Below the pieces are notes generated by a model that had not been told where the DNA came from, did no database searches, and worked only from the letters and a program-made list of their open reading frames with translations. 11,143 nucleotides of DNA from NCBI GenBank assembly GCA_016926735.1, contig JAFGOA010000226.1, positions 1-11,143 of the forward strand. The letters run 5' to 3'. The translations under genes were made by a program, and so were the position numbers. Shown one piece after another: positions 1-11,143 of this stretch; position 1 is the first letter of the stretch; the number at the start of each line of letters is the position of its first letter. Origin of the DNA: Promethearchaeota archaeon (GTDB taxonomy: Archaea; Asgardarchaeota; Lokiarchaeia; Sigyniarchaeales; SOKP01).

Positions 1-35
1 TACAAAATTATATCAAAACATTCATAAATAAATGA
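1..35 (+). CDS. Probable 3' end of the upstream gene (partial, product unknown)
   Basis: The frame starting at 3 reads QNYIKTFINK-TGA(33-35) and overlaps the ATG at 32 as ATGA, the same coupling seen at 778, 6559 and 10376. An alternative frame ends at TAA 25-27. Confidence 0.45.
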   Translation, partial: QNYIKTFINK

Positions 36-781
36 AAATCGCAATAATGCAACCCTATTTTTTCCCATACATAGGATATTTTCAATTGATTAATGCTGTG
101 GATAAATATATTTTATATGATCATTTTAATTACATAAAGAGCTCGTGGATTAATCGTAATAGGATTATTCAAAAAAAAAGCGAGATTGGACTAATAACTC
201 TTCCTTTAAAAAATAAAAGTTCTTTTTTAAAGATTAAAGATATTGAGATAGATGATACAAAGAAATGGAAAGAAAAAACAATAAAAACAATTAAAATAAA
301 TTATTCAAAAGCTCCATATTTCGATATAATTTATCCAATCGTAAAAGATGTTATAGAACTTCAAACAGACAAGTTGTCAAATATAAACAAAGCTTCAATT
401 AAAAATATTTGTAATTATTTACAAATAAAAACAACAATAGATTATAACTATAATAATGCTGGTAACATTGAAAATCTTTTATTTAATGATAATTATTTAG
501 AAAGTAATTATTCTGGATTAGAAAAGAAAACTGCTAGATTAATCGAGATATGCAAAATTGAAAAAGCAGATACATATCTCAATTCTATTGGAGGAATTGA
601 CTTGTATTCAAAAGACATTTTTAATAAGCACAATATACAGTTAAGATTTTTAAAAACAAATATTATTAAATACAAACAATTTACAAATACTTTTATTCCA
701 AATCTTTCCATTATCGATGTTCTAATGTTTAATAGTCCTGATGAAATACATGAAATGCTTGATGATTATGAGTTGATATGA
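32..781 (+). CDS. WbqC-like family protein (polysaccharide tailoring; proposed aminoacyl/glycyl transferase)
   Basis: The N-terminal MQPYFFPYIGYFQLI..D.Y..YD, the WINRNRI, NYSKAPYF and YLNSIGG motifs and the C-terminal F.PNLSIIDVL.F are characteristic of the WbqC family. 249 aa. Confidence 0.92.
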   Translation: MKIAIMQPYFFPYIGYFQLINAVDKYILYDHFNYIKSSWINRNRIIQKKSEIGLITLPLKNKSSFLKIKDIEIDDTKKWKEKTIKTIKINYSKAPYFDIIYPIVKDVIELQTDKLSNINKASIKNICNYLQIKTTIDYNYNNAGNIENLLFNDNYLESNYSGLEKKTARLIEICKIEKADTYLNSIGGIDLYSKDIFNKHNIQLRFLKTNIIKYKQFTNTFIPNLSIIDVLMFNSPDEIHEMLDDYELI

Positions 782-2767: not shown

Positions 2768-3796
2768 ATGATGAAAAAAGATATTCTAATTGTTGCTGAT
2801 AGACCTCATTGGGCTTATCACAATATTGTGGAATTTGTTTATAAGCAATTTTCTAATGAATATAATATATATAAAGATTATTTACTATTTAATTTGAAAA
2901 TTGATAACAGATCATCTGTTTTAAAAAAACAATATCGTAAAATTAAATATAAATATAGAGAATTGCATAAATATAAATATTCTAAAATAAAGACAGATAA
3001 TAAATACGATCTTGTTATTTATTTGGGATTTTATTTTCCATTGCAAATGAAGAATAATTATCATTATTCAAAAATTATTAAAGGTATATATACAGAGGGT
3101 TTTCCTCCGGAAAATACTGAAAGTTTTATTAAAACAGAAGAAGAGTTTATAAAAAAGTATCTAATTGATTGTGATGCAATAGTATGTGGAAATCAAAACA
3201 TCAGAGAATTTTATTCTAAATTATTCCACCGTTGTTATTATGCTAATGCTTCACATGATGAATTATTATTTAAGAGGAAAAATTCAAAAACAATAAATAA
3301 TAGTAAAAAATTTATCATTGGCTGGTCAGGAAATAAAAATAGACCTTTTAAAAATTATTATAATATTATCTTGCCAGTAATTTCTAAATTGAAAAAAATT
3401 TATCCAGGGATTATATTAAAAACAAGAACAAAAGGTAGTATGAATTCATTGCCTGGTTTTTATAGTGATATTGATTTGGTAATAATTGCATCAGAAAAGG
3501 ATGCTGGACCTTCACTTTTTTATGAAGCTAGTTTGATGGATGTACCATCAATTTCATGTAAAACTGGTATGCCGAGAGAAATAATTAAGCATAAACATAA
3601 TGGATATTTTGTAAATAATTGTTGTATTGATGATTTTCAAAATGGGATAATCGAAATATATAATGATAGAAAATTATTGTTTTCAATGTCGCAAAATATA
3701 AGGAAAGATGCTATAAATCAATTGGGTACAGAGATAAGCAAAAAACGTTGGGAAATAGTATTATCTGAAGTTTTGAGAGAACAAAGAATATTTTAA
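2768..3796 (+). CDS. Glycosyltransferase, GT-B fold (GT4-like), divergent
   Basis: IIGWSGN...FK, DLVIIASEKDAGPSLFYEASLMDVPSISCKTG..EII....NGY. Start at 2768 or 2771. Confidence 0.85.
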   Translation: MMKKDILIVADRPHWAYHNIVEFVYKQFSNEYNIYKDYLLFNLKIDNRSSVLKKQYRKIKYKYRELHKYKYSKIKTDNKYDLVIYLGFYFPLQMKNNYHYSKIIKGIYTEGFPPENTESFIKTEEEFIKKYLIDCDAIVCGNQNIREFYSKLFHRCYYANASHDELLFKRKNSKTINNSKKFIIGWSGNKNRPFKNYYNIILPVISKLKKIYPGIILKTRTKGSMNSLPGFYSDIDLVIIASEKDAGPSLFYEASLMDVPSISCKTGMPREIIKHKHNGYFVNNCCIDDFQNGIIEIYNDRKLLFSMSQNIRKDAINQLGTEISKKRWEIVLSEVLREQRIF

Positions 3797-3901: not shown

Positions 3902-5449
3902 ATGTTTTTGCTACAAAAAAGAATTATTACTATTGCGATAATTTATAATATTCTCTTGGCTGTTTTATATGAATATGCATTTGTTAATAGAAGTATTGAA
4001 TATATATTATTTATAGGTATTACCGTTTTAGTAATTTATTATTCTTATAAAAATAATTATCCTTTTGCTGTATTTATATTATTGATGGGGCTCTCAATAC
4101 AATCAGATTTATTAAGATATTTATTGTCTTTATTAAATATAACAGTTTTATTGGTAAAATATGAGATTCAAAAAAATCATAAACATACTTACAATAGTTT
4201 ACTTATAAAATTATTCTATTTGTTAATTGTTTATCTTTTTATATCATATATTATTTTTCAAAGAACATTTACAGATTATTGGAGCTTCCCATTATATTTA
4301 GTTACATTTCTTTCATACCCTTTAGCATGTTTTATATTTATACAAATTAATTTTTCTATAAAAGATTTGGAAAATGTAAGAAAAAGTATTATGACATTTT
4401 TACTAATACATATAATTACTGTATTAATTGTTCCCGTATTTTCTCAAAACTATTTGAGTTATTTGTCTTTATTTTCTTCAATTAGGGCTTTCTTTATTAA
4501 CTTTGGAATTAAAACATTTAATATTAGCGGATTTACTGGAGATATACATAGTAGTAACCTATCAAGTAGTAACACAATAGGTTTATTATCATACTTATTT
4601 ATTACATATACATTTATTATTTATTTTAGAACAAAAATAAAAAAAAACTTATTAGTCCTTTGTTTGGCTATTATTGTATTTATTATGACAGATACTAAAC
4701 ATGCTTATTTTGCTGTAATGATTAGCTTTTTAATACTTTTATTTTTGCTTTTGAAAAAACAGAAAGAAGTATTAATAAAGTATTTTCTAATAATATTGAT
4801 TATATCAAGTTCGATATATCTATTTATTTATATCGACAGTTATAAAAAAAGTATTAAAACTTTCCATAACGAATATTTTATTCGCAGGTCTAATCCAAAA
4901 TTAGAATTATATAGAAGATGCTTAAATGAAAACATAAAAAATCCTTTGTTGGCTATTATTGGTAGAGGCCCAGGAAGTTTTGGTAGTAGGGTCTCTAACT
5001 CAAGAGCGGCTGATATGTTGCATAAAAGCGAAATAAAATTACCAGATTTTATTCCTTTAACAACAAATCAGGATTATAAAAATGTTATGACAGGTTTATA
5101 TGAGCAATCTTTTGTAAGAAGATCAAAATCTGGTGCAATGCAAAACCCTTTTGCAAGTTTTATAGGTATAGTAATGGAGATGGGATTATTTGGATCAACT
5201 TTATTTATCTCAATATTTTTATTAATTATTAAATACTGTATAAAATCATTCTTTGTTGAGAAAGATATATATTGGTCTGCATGTTTATTATCAACAATTA
5301 GCATAATAATACTAATCTTAATTGTTTCAATATTTGATCAATATTTTGAATCGCCGGCATTAATGATACCTTTCTGGCTTATTATTGGATTATCACTAAA
5401 AAGAATAGAAGTGTTAAAAAGTATTGCTATTGTAGAAAAAACAATTTGA
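3902..5449 (+). CDS. Polytopic membrane protein, probable Wzy polysaccharide polymerase (O-antigen ligase-like fold)
   Basis: About a dozen hydrophobic segments and a large late loop containing IIGRGPGSF, followed by EMGLFG. Very AT-rich and flanked by glycosyltransferases. Confidence 0.72.
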   Translation: MFLLQKRIITIAIIYNILLAVLYEYAFVNRSIEYILFIGITVLVIYYSYKNNYPFAVFILLMGLSIQSDLLRYLLSLLNITVLLVKYEIQKNHKHTYNSLLIKLFYLLIVYLFISYIIFQRTFTDYWSFPLYLVTFLSYPLACFIFIQINFSIKDLENVRKSIMTFLLIHIITVLIVPVFSQNYLSYLSLFSSIRAFFINFGIKTFNISGFTGDIHSSNLSSSNTIGLLSYLFITYTFIIYFRTKIKKNLLVLCLAIIVFIMTDTKHAYFAVMISFLILLFLLLKKQKEVLIKYFLIILIISSSIYLFIYIDSYKKSIKTFHNEYFIRRSNPKLELYRRCLNENIKNPLLAIIGRGPGSFGSRVSNSRAADMLHKSEIKLPDFIPLTTNQDYKNVMTGLYEQSFVRRSKSGAMQNPFASFIGIVMEMGLFGSTLFISIFLLIIKYCIKSFFVEKDIYWSACLLSTISIIILILIVSIFDQYFESPALMIPFWLIIGLSLKRIEVLKSIAIVEKTI

Positions 5450-5467: not shown

Positions 5468-6562
5468 ATGAAGATTGCTTTTTTAGTTGACAGTCTTTTG
5501 GGCGGAGGAAAAGAAAGGCAATTATTATATCTTGCTCAAGAACTGTCTTTAAAAAATCAAATATTAGTTATTTCATTCAATGATGATATTTTTTATAAAG
5601 ATATATTAGATCTACCTGTTAATATTATCACATTTTCTAAAAACAAAAGATATTCAATTAAAACATATTTATTTTTATATAAGAAATTGTATTATTTCAA
5701 ACCGGAGATTATTCATATATGGGATAAGATTTCGCATTTAATTGCATTACCATATATTCTTACTCATAAAACAAAGATTGTGAACGGTTCTATTCGATTT
5801 GGAGGGAAATTAGATAAAAATATTGTTCAAAAATGGGTTAGTAGAATTTCATATACTTTTTCAGATAAAATTGTAGCTAATTCATTTGCTGGTTTAAAAG
5901 TTGAGAATTTGTATCAATCAAACAAATCTATTGTAATATTCAATGGAATTGATTGTAATGACAAAAATATCAAAACTGAATTTATTAATTGTTTTTACAA
6001 TGAATATAAAAGATTTGATAAATATATTGTTATGGTTGCGCGTTTTTATCCTTCAAAAGATTATATTACATTTATAAAATCTGCAAAAATTGTTCTACAA
6101 AAGTATAAGAATGTTGGTTTTTATTGTATCGGGGAAGGACCAAACAGGAATGAAGCAGAAATAGAATCTGATATATATTTGAATAAAAATATATTTTTCT
6201 TAGGACAATGTTTTGATGTTAAATGCTTGTTAAATAATTTTGATATTGGAGTTCTTTTAAACAACACAATTGGCCACGCCGAAGGCTTGTCAAATGCTAT
6301 AATGGAGTATATGCTTGCAGGCTTGCCTGTAGTTGCTACAAATGCAGGCGGCAATCCAGAAATTATTAATGATGGAGCTACAGGTTTTCTTGTTTCTCCG
6401 TTTGACGATAAAATTGTTGCTGATAAAATAATTTATCTTTTACAAAATCAAGAAGAAGCAAAAAAGATGGGGTGTGAAGGGAGAAATGTTATCAAAAAAA
6501 GGTTTAGTAAAAAAATTATGTCTAGAAGATATTTAACCCTATACAATGATTTAATTGGATGA
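5468..6562 (+). CDS. Glycosyltransferase family 4 (GT-B)
   Basis: GGGKER, NGID, MVARF...KD, canonical EX7E (EGLSNAIME), GLPVVATNAGGNPEII.DG.TGFLV. SD-like AAAGGA upstream. Confidence 0.93.
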   Translation: MKIAFLVDSLLGGGKERQLLYLAQELSLKNQILVISFNDDIFYKDILDLPVNIITFSKNKRYSIKTYLFLYKKLYYFKPEIIHIWDKISHLIALPYILTHKTKIVNGSIRFGGKLDKNIVQKWVSRISYTFSDKIVANSFAGLKVENLYQSNKSIVIFNGIDCNDKNIKTEFINCFYNEYKRFDKYIVMVARFYPSKDYITFIKSAKIVLQKYKNVGFYCIGEGPNRNEAEIESDIYLNKNIFFLGQCFDVKCLLNNFDIGVLLNNTIGHAEGLSNAIMEYMLAGLPVVATNAGGNPEIINDGATGFLVSPFDDKIVADKIIYLLQNQEEAKKMGCEGRNVIKKRFSKKIMSRRYLTLYNDLIG

Positions 6563-7629
6563 AAATTTCGTTTATTGGTGATTTAGCACTAAATGGGTTA
6601 ATAGTTGAAAAGAAAGAATTAAACCATTCAAGATTTAAAGAAGTTTCAAAGTTATTGAAAACCATGGATCTAAATATATCAAATCTCGAAACTCCAATTA
6701 TTGTTCATGGAAATATCAATCCAACAAAAAAACTAAACGGTGTAATTCTTGGGACAGAAAAAAATATTTTAATGGATATATTAAAATATATAAATATAAA
6801 TTGTGTTTCAATTGCCAATAATCATATTTTTGATTATTCAGATAATGGCATTGAAGAAACTTTACAATGTTTAAATAGTTTGAAAATTAAGTGGAATGGA
6901 ATTAGGGAAAAAGGAACTAAAAACATCTGTACTATTGTTAAAAAAAATAATTTAAGAATAGGTTTCCTCGCTTATGTTGATTTATCAACAAACCCAAAAA
7001 TATTATCAGATAGTAAATATGAGTTAAATGTCTTAAATGTAAAAAATGTAATACAGGACATTAGAGAATCCAGGCATGACTGTGATTTATTGATTGTTTC
7101 ATTACATTGGGGAAAAGATTATTCGAATTATTTTACAAAAGAGCAGAGGAAAATTGCTCATAGACTGATAAACGCAGGTGCAGATTTGATTATGGGACAT
7201 CATCCTCATGTAGTTCAAGCCTATGAGAATTACAGAGGTAAACGTATATTTTACAGTCTTGGAAATCTCTGTCATGGAGATTATTATAAAGAGGATAAAA
7301 TAAAAGCACTGAGAATAAAGACTAAAATATCAATTATTGCTTTATTGAACATAGAATCGAATAAGGTTGATTTTATTGTGACAAAAGAAAAGAAAGGTAA
7401 TTTTATAAAAGTTCAACCAAATATTGTATGGAAAAATTATTACAGGTTAACACTCTTAAAAAATCAATATAAGTTTATCCATTGTTTGCTAGTCATAAAA
7501 GAATCTATATTTGATCGGTTTTATGATTTTCTTTTTGGATATTATAGAAAGCCAATTACAGAAATTATGAATATTAAAAATTTAAAAAAAATTAAATATA
7601 TCAATGAAGATATAAATTCGCTTAAATAG
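6559..7629 (+). CDS. CapA/PgsA-family metallophosphoesterase-fold protein
   Basis: Complete CapA motif set: GDL, NLET, ANNHIFDY, SLHWG, GADLIMGHHPHVVQ, YSLGN. ATGA overlap with the upstream GT4. Confidence 0.92.
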   Translation: MKISFIGDLALNGLIVEKKELNHSRFKEVSKLLKTMDLNISNLETPIIVHGNINPTKKLNGVILGTEKNILMDILKYININCVSIANNHIFDYSDNGIEETLQCLNSLKIKWNGIREKGTKNICTIVKKNNLRIGFLAYVDLSTNPKILSDSKYELNVLNVKNVIQDIRESRHDCDLLIVSLHWGKDYSNYFTKEQRKIAHRLINAGADLIMGHHPHVVQAYENYRGKRIFYSLGNLCHGDYYKEDKIKALRIKTKISIIALLNIESNKVDFIVTKEKKGNFIKVQPNIVWKNYYRLTLLKNQYKFIHCLLVIKESIFDRFYDFLFGYYRKPITEIMNIKNLKKIKYINEDINSLK

Positions 7630-7630
7630 C

Positions 7631-9331
7631 ATGACTTGGGTTATTACTAATAAAGTTTTTAAAAACTATTTAAATGTAGAAAAAATAGCTAATTCTATTT
7701 TCTTTTACTCGGAAAATCTCCAAATAAGATACTTTTCCTCAGAAAGAAAAAAAAAAACCGGTATCTTTATTGACGGCTATGTTCTTCTCAGAAATAAATC
7801 AAAAAGAAAATATTATGTTTATAAAAATGAAGAATTAATTTTCAAACTTTATTTAGACTATGGTTTGGATTTTATCAATTATATTAAAGGAAATTTTACT
7901 TTATTCTTAATCATTAGTGATGAAATTAGATTATTTTCTGATCACTTGGGATTGAAGAAGTGTTTTTATTCATTTGATGAAAAAAATATCATTATCTCTA
8001 ATGATATCAATGTAATAATGAAAAATGTAAGTGTTGAGATAGAAAGAAACTCTATAATTGACCATGTTTTGTTTAACCACTTTATTAATGAAAGAACTAT
8101 TTATAAAAATGTATTTTTTAATAAGCCGGGTCAATATGTTACAATAAAAAAAGACATAATCAGTGTAAATCATTATTGGAATTATTTTGATCTAATACAA
8201 AATAATGCTGAATATAAGAACTATCACGAAATAGCAGATTTATTTTTAGATACTATTAAAAGTTATAATGAAATTATAAAACCTAAGAATTTGTCTTCAG
8301 CTATAACTGGAGGTGTTGATTGCAGATTAATAATTTCGACTCTTTTAAATCTTGGTTTTAGACCTAATGTCTATACTTATGGCAATCCTGAATCAGCTGA
8401 TTGCGTTTATGGGAGAAAAGCAGCTGAAAAATTAAATCTTAATTGGAAAAATTATTCATTTGTAGATGTTCAAACCGTATATCCACTTTTAATGAATGAG
8501 ATTTTAGAAAAGGGTAATACCTTGGCATCTATTCACAGAGCACATAGGCTTTATGCAATTAAAAAAGAAGATGAAAGATCAGATTTAATGTTTTTTGGTT
8601 ATCTCGGAAGTGAAATGATAAGAGGTTTATGGCCTGATGATTTGATAATTTCTGAATTTGTCAGAAAGCTTTGGGAAAAACCTAAAGATATAAACGGTCT
8701 AATAAAAAATATATTTCTTGAAAATCATTTTTTATACAATAAAAATGATATTGATTACGCAATAGAAGTTTCTAAATTGTTTAACTCCAAAAACGACTAT
8801 TATAGTTTAAAATATTTAACAGAAGTTATCGCACATATTCATTTTGCGCAGGATTTGAATTTGTTTGAATACTATTTGACAACCATTCCGTTATTTATGG
8901 ATATTGATATTATGAATGTAATATTGTCTTCAGATATATCATCTCTAAAACAAAGTAGAATGGTTAAAAATGATATTTTTAGATCAAATGTCCATGAATT
9001 TTATGCAAATCTGATTTATGAATTATATAAGCCAATGGCATATTTAAAGCTTTCAAAAGGTTTTAAGTTGAGTGATTACAAAAAAAATAAATCTTTGGTT
9101 TTAATTCAAAAATATATTCATGATCATGTAAATAGAGAAAAATTTCCTCCAAATTTTTCATATAATGGGTGGTTTAGAGAAATAATCGCTGAAAAATTAG
9201 ATGGATTAGAAAATTACAGGGATTATTTCAATTTTGATAGAATACCTGAATTATATAATGAAAAAGATTGTTTTCCTTTTTCGAGAATGCTTGAAGTAGA
9301 TTATTATATTGAAAAGTCAAAAAGTGGATAA
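7631..9331 (+). CDS. Asparagine-synthetase-like (AsnB-fold) amide synthetase lacking the N-terminal catalytic Cys
   Basis: Ntn-like region (IKGNFT, SDHLGLK..FY, TIYKNV...PG), PP-loop variant ITGGVDCR, YTYG, FFGYLGSEMIRG and PLFMD. The protein starts MTW with no Cys2. Confidence 0.82.
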   Translation: MTWVITNKVFKNYLNVEKIANSIFFYSENLQIRYFSSERKKKTGIFIDGYVLLRNKSKRKYYVYKNEELIFKLYLDYGLDFINYIKGNFTLFLIISDEIRLFSDHLGLKKCFYSFDEKNIIISNDINVIMKNVSVEIERNSIIDHVLFNHFINERTIYKNVFFNKPGQYVTIKKDIISVNHYWNYFDLIQNNAEYKNYHEIADLFLDTIKSYNEIIKPKNLSSAITGGVDCRLIISTLLNLGFRPNVYTYGNPESADCVYGRKAAEKLNLNWKNYSFVDVQTVYPLLMNEILEKGNTLASIHRAHRLYAIKKEDERSDLMFFGYLGSEMIRGLWPDDLIISEFVRKLWEKPKDINGLIKNIFLENHFLYNKNDIDYAIEVSKLFNSKNDYYSLKYLTEVIAHIHFAQDLNLFEYYLTTIPLFMDIDIMNVILSSDISSLKQSRMVKNDIFRSNVHEFYANLIYELYKPMAYLKLSKGFKLSDYKKNKSLVLIQKYIHDHVNREKFPPNFSYNGWFREIIAEKLDGLENYRDYFNFDRIPELYNEKDCFPFSRMLEVDYYIEKSKSG

Positions 9332-9332
9332 A

Positions 9333-10379
9333 ATGTTAAAGATAACAATACTTGGGAACGAGGATAAAAATGAGAATGTGTTATGGATAAAATCACTTGA
9401 AAAGCATAGAGAAAGAATAGAATATGATGTAATAGACTTAACCAAAAGTGATTGGTTCAAAAAGATAGAACACTGCAAATCAGATTTATACCTTACAAAA
9501 CCACCGGGATTGAATTCTATTTCCAAGCAACTCTATGATGAAAGAATATGGATAATAAACAAAATTTTAAAATTTCCAATTTATCCAAGTTTTGAAGAAG
9601 TTTTAGTCTATGAAAATAAAAGGCTGCTTTCATGTTTCCTCGCAGGCAACAATATATCTTGCCCTAAAACAAGTGTTTTTTATTTTAAGGATGAAGCCCT
9701 CGAATTTCTTAATAATTGTCAATATCCCATTGTTGGGAAATTCAGTATTGGAGCTTCAGGTTATGGTATAAAAATAATAAATACACAAAAAAGAGCGGAA
9801 GACTATATCAAAACCGCTTTTTCTTCGAAAGGTCTTACAAGAAAATGGGGTCCTAATTTCAATTATGGGAATTGGGGGAAAAGAATTGGGAGATACTTAA
9901 AGGGCGAGAGAAAATTAAGTGACAAAATAAAGACATATTCACTGCAAAAAGCAGAAACTCAGAAGGGATTTGTGATACTTCAAGAGTTTATTCCGCATGA
10001 TTTTGAATGGAGATGTGTCAGGATTGGGGATAGTTATTTTGCTCATAAAAAAATGAAAAAAGGCGATAAAACGAGCGGGACTCTCATGAAAAATTACGAT
10101 AATCCACCTCTTTATTTGTTTGATTTCGTCAAAGAATTGACTGAAAGGATTGATTTTAAATCAGTCGCCATTGACCTATTTGAATATCCTGAAAGAAATT
10201 TTCTTATAAACGAAATTCAGTGCTTTTTTGGGCAATCAGATCCTTATCAGATGAAAGTAGATGATAAACCGGGTAGGTATATAATTTCTGAGAAAAAGTG
10301 GATATTTGAAGAAGGATATTTTTGCACGAATGAATGTTTTGACCTCAGGCTGGACCATGCCTTGAGTTTAATTAAATGA
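9333..10379 (+). CDS. ATP-grasp amide ligase, RimK/LysX-like
   Basis: YENK, PKT, YPIVGK..GASG.GI, VILQEFIP, EWRCVRIG, VAIDLF, INEIQ. ATG 9333 (2 nt after the upstream stop, GGA upstream) is preferred over the track's TTG 9309. Confidence 0.85.
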   Translation: MLKITILGNEDKNENVLWIKSLEKHRERIEYDVIDLTKSDWFKKIEHCKSDLYLTKPPGLNSISKQLYDERIWIINKILKFPIYPSFEEVLVYENKRLLSCFLAGNNISCPKTSVFYFKDEALEFLNNCQYPIVGKFSIGASGYGIKIINTQKRAEDYIKTAFSSKGLTRKWGPNFNYGNWGKRIGRYLKGERKLSDKIKTYSLQKAETQKGFVILQEFIPHDFEWRCVRIGDSYFAHKKMKKGDKTSGTLMKNYDNPPLYLFDFVKELTERIDFKSVAIDLFEYPERNFLINEIQCFFGQSDPYQMKVDDKPGRYIISEKKWIFEEGYFCTNECFDLRLDHALSLIK

Positions 10380-11143
10380 AAGTCCTCTTTATTCTCGCCG
10401 ATCTCGGAGGGGATTTTAGAAGAAAATCTCCTTTTATTTATTCACAGGGAGAATCTTTAAAAAAAATTGGTCTTGAAGTTGATTATTTTCTTTTAAGAGG
10501 AAGAGGATTTCTTAAATATGTTTTTGGTATAGGGCAGTTAAAAAAGTATCTAAAGAATAAAGACTACGATATTTTACACGCACATTACAGTTACGCGGGA
10601 TTGTCTGCTACTTTCGCTTCAAAGAAACCTTTAATCGTATCATTGATGGGGAGTGATATATACAGTAGGGAGAATATAATAAAGAGAATTATCAATAAAA
10701 TAGTTTTGAGGAGAGTTTTATATAAATCAGATATAATTATCTGCAAAAGCGAGAAAATGAAAGATTCGATAAATAGAGAGAAAGATATATATGTCATTCC
10801 TAACGGAGTTGATTTTAATGTCTTTTATCCAATAGATAAAAAAAAGTCAAGATCAGTTTTGGGACTGAGTTTAGAGAAAAAATATATTCTAATTGTTGGG
10901 AATACTAAGAGAAAAGAGAAAAATTTTAAGTTGGCTAAAAAAGTGTATGATGAATTGGATAAAATAGAAGTAGAATTATTAGTAATAAACAATAAATCTC
11001 AGGAAGAATTAAACCTATATTACAATTCCGCTGATGTCCTTTTGATGACTTCGTTATATGAGGGTTCACCTAATGTAATAAAAGAGTCTATGGCGTGTAA
11101 TCTGCCGATTGTTTCAACAGATGTGGGGGATGTTAAAGAAAGA
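10376..11143 (+). CDS. Glycosyltransferase family 4 (TuaC-like), partial at 3' end; absent from the ORF track
   Basis: Manual translation: MKVLFILADLGG...DILHAHYSY...LMGSDI...IPNGVD...KEKNF...ADVLLMTSLYEGSPNVIKESMACNLPIVSTDVGDVKER. EX7E motif present, ATGA overlap with the ATP-grasp stop, open to the window end (256 codons). Confidence 0.93.
   Translation, partial: MKVLFILADLGGDFRRKSPFIYSQGESLKKIGLEVDYFLLRGRGFLKYVFGIGQLKKYLKNKDYDILHAHYSYAGLSATFASKKPLIVSLMGSDIYSRENIIKRIINKIVLRRVLYKSDIIICKSEKMKDSINREKDIYVIPNGVDFNVFYPIDKKKSRSVLGLSLEKKYILIVGNTKRKEKNFKLAKKVYDELDKIEVELLVINNKSQEELNLYYNSADVLLMTSLYEGSPNVIKESMACNLPIVSTDVGDVKER

Follow-up and report, generated by a model that had tools for sequence, protein, structure and literature searches.

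Introduction

The Wbp/Vim system of Porphyromonas gingivalis and Tannerella forsythia is a partly characterised pathway in which amide bonds are formed on a sugar before it reaches a glycosyltransferase. In the available portion of its description (PMC7468200), the proposed role of the CE4 protein VimE is to release the 2-amine in a di-N-acetyl uronic acid, VimA (FemAB-like) determines whether serine or glycine is attached, and the AsnB-type protein WbpS makes the uronamide; the product is a 2-N-seryl/glycyl-3-N-acetyl-glucuron(am)ide, which is passed to a GT4 glycosyltransferase (VimF is among the proteins). Here we compare this and other described systems with a glycan locus on a contig from a Promethearchaeota archaeon (JAFGOA010000226.1 of assembly GCA_016926735.1, contig C53 below). 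The window that we analysed is the whole contig, 11,143 nt long, from a bin of 3.88 Mb in 238 contigs. It carries a gene for an AsnB-like protein without the N-terminal cysteine (Cys-less), a gene for an ATP-grasp ligase and a gene for a GT4 glycosyltransferase, preceded by a gene for a PGA_cap protein, and we lean towards reading them as an amino-acid decoration cassette.

The CE4, FemAB-like and canonical AsnB genes of Wbp/Vim occur in many relatives of the window cassette. The window itself has no CE4, FemAB-like or glutamine-dependent AsnB gene by Pfam and NCBIfam, its downstream part being missing, and Wbp/Vim has no counterpart to the Cys-less AsnB-like protein, the RimK/LysX-like ATP-grasp or the DUF354 protein of the cassette; nor did we see the Wbp dehydrogenase or aminotransferase set in the cassette flanks. 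A first-pass annotation of this DNA knew of no characterised pathway with exactly this trio of PGA_cap, AsnB-like and ATP-grasp genes. Its chemistry has more precedent than that suggests, since the wider cassette has a relative in the partly characterised Wbp/Vim pathway. The cassette is an uncharacterised variant of known sugar-tailoring chemistry rather than a new category. No publication on the cassette was found in the glycan ATP-grasp and amide literature that we searched; as far as its available text goes, one report (PMC4000134) concerns a different ATP-grasp-containing glycan locus with no bearing on this one.

In the HS:2 capsule of Campylobacter jejuni, according to the available text of another report (PMC11800379), Cj1438C, the C-terminal ATP-grasp domain of Cj1438, amidates glucuronic acid (GlcA) on the growing chain with ethanolamine-P or serinol-P as the amine, the phosphatase Cj1435 trims the product, and the next glycosyltransferase accepts only the amide. 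Cj1438C is described there as TupA-like and fused to a GT2 (PMC11800379), whereas the window ATP-grasp is free-standing and is placed by its predicted structure in the ArgX/LysX/RimK group. The ordering logic, a glycosyltransferase, a ligase and a further glycosyltransferase, is like that of the window.

A further parallel comes from the peptidoglycan of lactic acid bacteria, in which Aslfm (AslA), AsnH and an aspartate racemase reportedly carry out ligation of D-Asp followed by an AsnB-type amidation. That logic (ligation of an acidic residue, supply of the D-form, amidation) parallels the set of ATP-grasp, PGA_cap and AsnB-like proteins found here. There, AsnH depends on glutamine, a peptidoglycan precursor serves as the acceptor, and a racemase acting on the free amino acid provides the stereochemistry.

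A conserved cassette of putative amide ligases and glycosyltransferases

The genes from 5468 to the end of the window are the following:

5468-6562, + strand: GT4_b glycosyltransferase, 364 aa (Glycos_transf_1, 5.4e-30; Glyco_transf_4, 6.2e-8)
6559-7629, + strand: PGA_cap protein, 356 aa (PF09587, 1.7e-57)
7631-9331, + strand: Cys-less AsnB-like protein, 566 aa, of the subfamily that we call ASNa
9333-10379, + strand: ATP-grasp ligase, 348 aa, assigned from its modelled fold to the RimK/LysX/ArgX structural group
10376-11143, + strand: GT4_c glycosyltransferase, 5' 256 codons (Glyco_transf_4, 4.9e-16; Glycos_transf_1-type)

To see what belongs to this arrangement, metagenomes were scanned with a profile of the ATP-grasp alone, giving 294 relatives, of which 80 loci were kept, picked blind to their neighbours. 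Open reading frames (ORFs) of at least 90 aa from 87 loci were clustered and the clusters were named with Pfam, and the neighbour counts below include only loci with enough flanking DNA. GT4_c follows the ATP-grasp gene in 61 of 62 loci and is its obligate partner. A Cys-less AsnB-like gene stands beside the ATP-grasp gene in 42/49 loci and directly upstream of it in 39/54. A DUF354 gene is present downstream in 27 of 28 loci, and in 19/28 the cassette is closed by a protein of 250-275 aa (cluster 5) with CE4-like HDVD and HEIGYH motifs, for which there is no Pfam match at E<=0.001 (for example L005:5259-6062, L007:12873-13628 and L008:13570-14352). A recurrent UDP-sugar 6-dehydrogenase was not found within 8 kb on either side of the cassette, and the DUF354 literature searched yielded nothing linking DUF354 with ATP-grasp enzymes or polysaccharides.

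One position downstream of GT4_c is taken by one of two kinds of gene (loci L013-L092): a second, CPSase-type ATP-grasp of about 390 aa in 11/28 loci, or a FemAB-like (Acetyltransf_6) protein of about 340 aa in 16/28. One or the other is present in 27 loci out of 28, and both together in none (0/28). The second ATP-grasp is usually followed by a phosphatidylserine (PS) decarboxylase-like gene (cluster 24, 7 loci) or a DegT gene (cluster 19, 8 loci), and in the FemAB version a canonical AsnB gene often comes before it; the canonical, glutamine-dependent AsnB occurs in 7/28 loci. Some related loci have up to four ATP-grasp genes. On the upstream side, a CE4 deacetylase is present in 22/29 loci and a PGA_cap gene in 12/29, with the AsnB-like gene present in all 12.

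Because the same neighbours recur in dozens of unrelated contigs, the arrangement is not due to chance. The conserved unit consists of the AsnB-like gene, the ATP-grasp gene and the downstream GT4, usually with DUF354 and others. The families of the first-pass trio do co-occur across genomes, as that annotation had proposed to check, the AsnB-like gene with the ATP-grasp gene in most loci and all three genes in the 12/29 loci just given; its choice of the trio as the unit does not hold, for the core includes GT4_c and the PGA_cap gene is present in only that minority of loci. The window carries the cassette as defined here: its ATP-grasp is 49-56% identical to the 119 homologues listed, above the 45% that the definition sets, and its gene stands between a Cys-less AsnB-like gene and GT4_c.

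The order GT4 - PGA_cap - AsnB-like - ATP-grasp - GT4 recurs exactly in three loci (L007, L025 and L088). L088 reads Wzy-like - GT4 - PGA_cap - ASNa - ATP-grasp - GT4_c - second ATP-grasp - DUF354 - CE4-like, and its downstream order is our best guess for the genes lost from the window. In the ASNa subfamily, a CE4 gene is found just upstream in 0/9 loci and a PGA_cap gene there in 4/9; in a second subfamily, ASNb, the corresponding counts are 19/21 and 0/21. As both genes precede the AsnB-like gene, we considered that PGA_cap might replace the CE4 deacetylase. We rejected this idea, as ASNa loci often have neither gene and seven loci have both.

A separate scan of a genome collection, made with an AsnB-like profile built on a 6-sequence alignment, found six loci, in Wenzhouxiangella, Balneolales, Bacteroidetes, Desulfobacterium (two) and Ignavibacteriaceae metagenome-assembled genomes (MAGs). 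All of those that were long enough (5/5) have the ATP-grasp and GT4_c.

The four junctions between the five genes were read base by base. The stop codon of GT4_b (TGA, 6560-6562) overlaps the ATG of the PGA_cap gene (6559-6561) as ATGA. The TAG of the PGA_cap gene ends at 7629 and is followed by a single C at 7630 and the ATG of the AsnB-like gene at 7631, while the TAA of the AsnB-like gene ends at 9331 and is followed by a single A at 9332 and the ATG of the ATP-grasp gene at 9333. The TGA of the ATP-grasp gene (10377-10379) overlaps the ATG of GT4_c (10376-10378), again as ATGA. The layout described by the first-pass annotation, with 1-nt gaps inside the trio and ATGA overlaps with the flanking GT4 genes, was thus correct in every detail that could be checked. 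The longest frame of the ATP-grasp begins at a TTG at 9309, and we take ATG 9333 as the start because an alignment with 23 homologues (A3) supports it.

GT4_c runs into the contig end, which truncates this last GT4 and leaves the remainder of the locus missing. No continuation past GT4_c was found in the bin with end k-mers, with tblastn using the C-termini of four GT4_c homologues, or by walking across shared contig ends.

The GT4_b family (cluster 7) is present in 23 loci, and the L025 counterpart is 36% identical. An antisense frame of 103 aa (6124-6432, - strand) lies within GT4_b, and similar frames are found in two other loci (cluster 37). Further conserved antisense frames (clusters 9, 20, 36-38 and 43-47) overlap conserved genes, and all of these are taken to be a by-product of conserved coding on the opposite strand and not genes.

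The two predicted ligases

The ATP-grasp is the best conserved gene of the cassette. Its matches to curated families are weak: the RimK family model TIGR00768 gives 39.8 bits against a cut-off of 143.4, over residues 85-161 only. In a Pfam scan at E<=0.01 only CPSase_L_D2 was listed; Pfam presumably includes a TupA-like model, and the chains compared by structure did not include one of Cj1438C. The predicted structure (mean predicted local distance difference test score, pLDDT, 85) has a three-domain ATP-grasp fold. With VIA-align, the best matches were ArgX (Z 22.9, root-mean-square deviation 3.6, 274 residues aligned), LysX/ArgX (22.2) and RimK (21.6), among 133 chains that reached Z>=8; with Foldseek there were at least 500 matches at E<=0.001, the top ten being ArgX, LysX and RimK-type chains. 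A profile search of the PDB agrees, with ArgX at E 6.2e-7 and the IVQEYI..R and D..NE motifs aligned. Across 24 sequences (A3), K136, E225, R227, D281, N293 and E294 are invariant and the mean column identity is 64%; we take these to be the ATP/Mg-binding lysine of the central domain and the acidic and asparagine residues of the C-domain. On the modelled fold, the protein appears to belong to the RimK/LysX/ArgX structural group.

LysX, ArgX and RimK add the alpha-amine of an acidic amino acid (glutamate or alpha-aminoadipate) to a carboxylate on a larger acceptor. They are the best structural and profile matches over the whole length of the window protein, with the motif columns aligned. Identity is 14-16%, the window protein is about 70 residues longer, with an insertion at about 165-215 that is modelled with low confidence, and a gene for a LysW-like carrier is not present in the window.

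A word-based search at 90% clustering returned at least 1151 relatives of the ATP-grasp. The 119 matches listed besides the window protein are 49-56% identical, about 350 aa long, and named no further than "glutathione synthase/RimK-type ligase-like". The members of the family are mostly from uncultured Bacteroidota, Desulfobacterota, Ignavibacteria and others; the protein atlas agrees, with Bacteroidota commonest. A search for fused forms of 610-2000 aa gave none at E 1e-20 or better, which is weak evidence.

The AsnB-like protein is also far from curated families, with 62 bits against 267.1 for TIGR01536, 44.4 bits against 816.9 for the WbpS-type model eps_aminotran_1 (TIGR03108), and E 1.7e-3 for GATase_7. 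It begins MTWVITN, with no cysteine after the methionine, and none of 18 aligned family members has one there (0/18). The PP-loop, T226-G-G-V-D230-C-R232, aligns with LSGGLDSS of AsnB in a profile alignment. In 56 family sequences G227, G228, D230 and R232 are invariant and T226, D257 and D424 are conserved at 90% or more; the D257 and D424 columns match those of AsnB in the profile alignment. The family keeps the acidic residue of the GxxGGE/D motif and has an HRAHR motif of its own at 302-306, with R303 and R306 invariant and H302, A304 and H305 at 90% or more (alignment A1). In A1, T226 and D424 are invariant as well. Judged by these residues, the adenylation half of the protein looks intact.

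The AlphaFold model (pLDDT 92.7) has the two-domain AsnB fold, and Foldseek matched it to carbapenam synthetase (8.5e-15), TsnB9 (TMq 0.66), human ASNS, AsnB (2.8e-13) and beta-lactam synthetase. In carbapenam synthetase (CarA) and beta-lactam synthetase (beta-LS), the N-domain no longer hydrolyses glutamine, and the PP-loop domain adenylates a carboxylate, which is then attacked by an amine. CarA, beta-LS and TsnB9 are the top fold matches and share the two-domain AsnB architecture of the window protein; they differ in identity (8-13%), in the TGGxDxR PP-loop and HRAHR motif of the window protein, and in context, which is beta-lactam or hydroxamate biosynthesis for them and a glycan locus here. 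The model suggests a glutaminase-dead adenylating enzyme of the AsnB fold. The two ligases of the window thus have different folds and presumably different chemistry, an ATP-grasp fold and an AsnB fold that keeps its PP-loop and has no cysteine, as the first-pass annotation had claimed in describing two independent amide-forming enzymes in a glycan locus.

For the AsnB-like protein, the word-based search gave 24 relatives, with up to 37% identity. Using phmmer against 1.84 billion representatives (clusters at 50% identity), we obtained 4017 at E<=0.001, of which 500 passed 1e-10 and 158 passed 1e-30; identity was at most 38%. A prediction of a complex between the AsnB-like and ATP-grasp proteins gave a score of 0.00 and a mark of 0.32, which weighs neither way.

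The PGA_cap protein

The PGA_cap protein matches PF09587 with 195.2 bits against a cut-off of 27, residues 2-238 covering profile positions 1-252 of 255. Among solved structures, its closest relative is MslH, the epimerase of the C-terminal Trp of a lasso peptide (8gq9, E 1.3e-12). In the available text of the MslH report (PMC10406935), MslH is a metal-dependent epimerase of a C-terminal residue that binds one Ca(II) through Glu44, Asn87, His259 and His261 and uses the pairs His88/Asp91 and His295/Asp11 for epimerisation. The PGA_cap domain is common to both proteins, and the window protein keeps D8, E44, N88-H89, D92, H183 and H214/H217. We compared the MslH residues D11, E44, N87, H88, D91, H259, H261 and H295, and seven of the eight have counterparts: the two pairs correspond to H89/D92 and H217/D8, and the ligands Glu44, Asn87 and His259 to E44, N88 and H183, while the position of His261 is Gly185. 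The protein is not a member of the MslH equivalog (NF038314, 70.8 bits against a 700-bit cut-off), and the window has no lasso-peptide gene. From these residues, the window protein may work like MslH. The first-pass annotation called it a metallo-hydrolase, an activity that is not established for PGA_cap; the one case that we found documented, MslH, is an epimerase in the available text (PMC10406935).

The resemblance of the PGA_cap protein to MslH and of the AsnB-like protein to cyclases led us to consider a lasso-peptide system. The lasso cyclase model gives 38.8 bits against 525 on the AsnB-like protein, no precursor, protease or family for recognition of peptides made by ribosomes and modified after translation (RiPPs) was found among the window ORFs with Pfam and NCBIfam, and the context is that of a glycan throughout. 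We rejected this candidate, and the resemblance is a coincidence of families.

None of the three proteins of the trio has a hydrophobic segment. In the PGA_cap protein the maximum hydropathy is 1.21 and no window reaches 1.6, and there is no signal peptide or membrane segment, so it is predicted to be cytoplasmic. PgsA and CapA are membrane-anchored, and the window protein differs from them in this respect. It also has none of the partners of the CapBCA/PgsBCA systems, as no CapB (Mur-ligase type) or CapC match was found among the ten ORFs of the window with Pfam and NCBIfam, the search being confined to these. The literature searched on PgsA, PgsBCA and poly-gamma-glutamate gave no mention of epimerization.

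Orthologues about 40% identical to the window PGA_cap protein occur in L014, L025, L027, L067 and L088. Members of this group stand directly before ASNa (L025 and L088) or before an ATPgrasp_ST gene, with the AsnB-like gene distant (L014, L027 and L067). A second PGA_cap group adjoins a RimK-like ATP-grasp. PGA_cap therefore always adjoins an amide ligase, be it AsnB-like, ATPgrasp_ST or RimK-like ATP-grasp, and is an optional accessory tailoring enzyme of the cassette, not part of its core.

Proposed function

On balance, we favour a reading as a horizontally mobile cassette that puts an amino-acid substituent, bound through an amide, on one of the sugars of the repeat unit, in the cytoplasm and between two GT4 steps. 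The substituent would most likely be just one residue, with or without amidation, or else a peptide of very few residues. GT4_b would add a sugar, and the ATP-grasp would then activate a carboxylate as an acyl-phosphate and join it to an amine. As the enzymes closest to the ATP-grasp in structure attach an acidic amino acid, a residue of the Glu/Asp type is a reasonable guess, and its free carboxylate could then be amidated or ligated. The AsnB-like protein would adenylate the remaining carboxylate and close a second amide; as it lacks the Cys nucleophile, its nitrogen cannot come from glutamine, and could be supplied by ammonia, a sugar amine or a second amino acid. Where present, the soluble PGA_cap protein would modify the attached residue, more likely by an MslH-like epimerisation at C-alpha than by hydrolysis. 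The modified sugar would then be extended by GT4_c, whose translation is coupled to that of the ATP-grasp. The gene order, families, folds, motifs and co-occurrence are established; the activities, the substrates, the regiochemistry, the sequence of steps and the lipid carrier are our proposals.

Attachment of an amino acid is favoured by what surrounds the cassette in related loci (FemAB-like genes, further ATP-grasps, CE4 and canonical AsnB). The alternation of a ligase with a FemAB-like gene at one position points to amino-acid addition and is the strongest single hint for an amino-acid substituent. The acceptor named in the first-pass annotation was a uronic or amino sugar. The uronic acid is not supported, being weakened by the absence of a recurrent UDP-sugar 6-dehydrogenase within 8 kb; deacetylases that free sugar amines are common in related loci and, together with the FemAB-like genes, point to a sugar amine as the acceptor, as in Wbp/Vim. 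The overall idea of that annotation, amide-linked decoration of a glycan by two ligases, was right in kind and needed correction as to the conserved unit, the role of PGA_cap and the acceptor.

Several observations weigh against the function that we favour. Much of the argument for an amino acid is carried by the FemAB, CE4, DUF354 and second ATP-grasp genes, which the window does not have; tblastn against the whole genome found no homologue of the second ATP-grasp, and DUF354 on contigs C149 and C17 only. The 80 loci do not count as independent events, many having been drawn from similar samples. Structural alignments with characterised enzymes show identities of 8-16%, so inference of substrates from ArgX, LysX and RimK is weak, and the cassette homologues are named only "hypothetical" or "RimK-type ligase-like", with no substrate attached. 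The AsnB-like protein scores far below every curated cut-off and may therefore have another activity. The replacement of the MslH metal ligand His261 by glycine means that MslH-type chemistry is not assured. Lastly, the contig is placed in the archaeon by binning and composition only, and no relative has similar DNA.

An unlikely but serious alternative is that no amino acid is involved and that an acidic sugar is amidated with a small amine or ammonia, as in C. jejuni HS:2. The ATP-grasp would couple a phosphorylated small amine (such as ethanolamine-P or serinol-P) to a sugar carboxylate, PGA_cap would remove the phosphate, and the AsnB-like protein would make a carboxamide from ammonia. There is a precedent in Cj1438C and Cj1435, with a next transferase that needs the amide (available text of PMC11800379), PGA_cap keeps metal residues of the metallophosphoesterase type in a calcineurin-like fold, and the PS-decarboxylase-like or DegT proteins encoded after the second ATP-grasp in relatives could make small amines. 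Against this, the cassette has no recurrent UDP-sugar 6-dehydrogenase nearby, the ATP-grasp has no TupA-like match at E<=0.01 in Pfam, we met no phosphatase activity of a PGA_cap protein in the literature looked at, and the FemAB-like genes of 16/28 loci point to aminoacyl transfer. PGA_cap is absent from 17/29 loci, so it is not an obligate dephosphorylation step.

Very unlikely, in our view, is that the glycan bears a longer chain of the poly- or oligo-amino-acid type, as in teichuronopeptide or poly-gamma-glutamate, made by a processive RimK-like ATP-grasp with PGA_cap in the role that it has beside CapB/CapC. RimK (Z 21.6) adds poly-alpha-glutamate, the title of its PDB entry 5zct reads "poly-alpha-L-glutamate peptides synthetase", PGA_cap takes its family name from poly-gamma-glutamate capsule synthesis, and some related loci have as many as four ATP-grasp genes; yet the window ORFs include no CapB-like or CapC match, the PGA_cap protein has no membrane anchor and is optional, and an ATP-grasp placed between glycosyltransferases and coupled to GT4_c fits a single tailoring step before extension. 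Hardly to be expected at all is that the AsnB-like protein is a non-catalytic partner or some other PP-loop enzyme and that only the ATP-grasp makes an amide. Its scores below all curated thresholds, its dead glutaminase domain and the replacement of the PP-loop serine by threonine and of the second serine by arginine would fit such a loss, but the PP-loop is conserved in 56 sequences in columns aligned with AsnB, the acidic residue of the GxxGGE/D motif is kept, the closest folds are active Cys-less homologues (carbapenam and beta-lactam synthetases), and cassettes with a canonical AsnB still retain the AsnB-like gene.

Beyond the single amide-linked substituent that we favour, there is a bolder extension that we think distinctly unlikely, namely that the product is a glycopeptide of an unrecognised kind. 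A short stem would be built by acyl-phosphate and acyl-adenylate ligases, without ribosomes or non-ribosomal peptide synthetases (NRPS), and, in the versions that have PGA_cap, this protein would act as an epimerase of calcineurin fold and turn the terminal residue into its D-form. If this were true, PGA_cap would be a general class of carboxy-terminal-residue epimerases, with a hint at the role of CapA/PgsA, and an Asgard archaeon would have adopted a peptidoglycan-like decoration through gene transfer.

Other genes of the window

All ten ORFs of at least 150 aa in the window are on the + strand. In addition to the five genes given above, they are:

32-781, + strand: WbqC-like protein (PF08889, 1.1e-69)
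778-1743, + strand: 321-aa protein with no Pfam or NCBIfam match
1764-2306, + strand: GNAT acetyltransferase
2768-3796, + strand: GT1-type transferase
3902-5449, + strand: multi-pass membrane protein, Wzy/O-antigen-ligase-like, 515 aa (sub-threshold match to Pfam Wzy_C)

The first three genes (32-2306) look like an amino-sugar N-acylation set. The WbqC-like gene and the gene for the 321-aa protein overlap by ATGA. The 321-aa protein falls among protein-atlas clusters named DegT/DnrJ/EryC1 aminotransferase, which is a lead only. A WbqC-like gene is also present in the related locus L040, and the WbqC literature that we searched gave nothing on the function of WbqC. Between the GNAT gene and the next transferase there is a noncoding gap of about 460 nt (2307-2767), the sole sizeable gap in the contig, which may be an operon boundary; an 81-aa frame on the minus strand (2263-2508) lies partly inside it.

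The Wzy_C match of the 515-aa protein (E 5.1e-6, 26.8 bits) is below the 31.7-bit cut-off, and 83 Kyte-Doolittle windows of 19 residues reach 1.6 or more. The name Wzy is thus given on a sub-gathering Pfam match together with strong hydrophobicity, and should be read with that caveat. Related loci also carry Wzy-like genes on the upstream side (cluster 15, 11 loci), and the order in L088 is identical.

Host genome and strain variation

The host is archaeal, and of Asgard type by its profilin. The genome encodes ribosomal protein S24e, which among the controls is matched only in four archaea, and it has two profilin-family matches over the cut-off, compared with 0/14 control genomes; LpxC was not found in it. 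C53 has a G+C content of 0.263, the same as the genome mean (0.263, sd 0.016), and with a tetranucleotide correlation of 0.987 it ranks 13th lowest among 46 contigs of like size. Within the window, G+C is about 0.26; between 9001 and 11000 (the ATP-grasp and GT4_c) it is 0.29-0.33, compared with 0.22-0.27 in the rest of the contig, and this rise may reflect stronger protein conservation or a younger insertion.

Our reading of these data is that a bacterial cassette was probably acquired by an archaeal lineage and is now native in composition. It is unlikely, though worth keeping in view, that the contig is instead a mis-binned low-GC piece of a bacterium, in which case the transfer reading falls and the function reading stays. 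The contamination estimate of the bin is 4.84%, the contig is short and linked to other short contigs only, and both ligases are absent from the 399 other genomes of the phylum (the ATP-grasp 0/399 at E 1e-30 or better, the AsnB-like protein 0/399 at E 1e-15 or better). When all of the window was searched as DNA against 40 relatives, nothing but short AT-rich chance matches came up, and the taxon-labelled close relatives are all bacterial except for one protein, among the closest AsnB-like relatives, that is labelled as from a Hodarchaeota MAG. That one protein also speaks against mis-binning, as do the G+C content at the genome mean, the tetranucleotide profile within the range of like-sized contigs, and WbqC-like genes on large contigs in two out of 134 further genomes of the family, in one case on a contig of 580 kb or more from an assembly of 10 contigs. 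Identity to the nearest bacterial homologues reaches only 36-56%, which leaves no obvious donor or contaminant.

The ends of C53 are shared with other contigs of the bin. Its last 87 nt (11057-11143, in GT4_c) are identical to the end of a 2768-nt contig, C54 (L010), which itself starts with the last 87 nt of C196 (L102), and the reverse complement of C145 (L103) starts like C53, with 83% identity over 174 nt (window 1-174). Together these give a second version of the locus, with genes for a WbqC-like protein (49% identical), a pyruvyl-transferase-like protein, a hexapeptide acyltransferase and a GT2; after a gap come a weak RimK-like ATP-grasp, a Wzy-like protein, a Cys-less AsnB-like protein and GT4_c (71% identical). 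The AsnB-like paralogue on C54 is 24% identical, starts MIISNF and has the PP-loop SGGFDTR. In either version, an ATP-grasp gene and a Cys-less AsnB-like gene are paired ahead of the same GT4. Two versions between shared ends suggest co-existing strains.

A second glycan locus is found on contig C149 (L011, about 4100-12600), with a complete GT4_c-like gene (40% identity), a DUF354 gene that abuts a UDP-GlcNAc 2-epimerase gene, and a stretch resembling the C-terminus of the cluster 5 protein. We considered C149 as the continuation of the window locus. Its own complete GT4_c-like gene makes it a separate locus, and it lacks both an AsnB-like gene and a homologue of the window ATP-grasp.

Significance

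Amino-acid and amide substituents shape the charge and antigenicity of glycans and their recognition by phages and the immune system, and few of the enzymes that attach them are known. The ATP-grasp family described here, with its 1151 or more members, spans several phyla at 49-56% identity among the matches listed and has nearly invariant gene partners. As neither ligase family has a characterised member, one set of assays would annotate many genes. The alternation of a second ATP-grasp with a FemAB-like protein and the pairing of PGA_cap with amide ligases lead to testable hypotheses for PGA_cap and DUF354. If the binning holds, the window is a clean example of a bacterial surface-glycan module entering an Asgard genome, in a locus that varies between strains.

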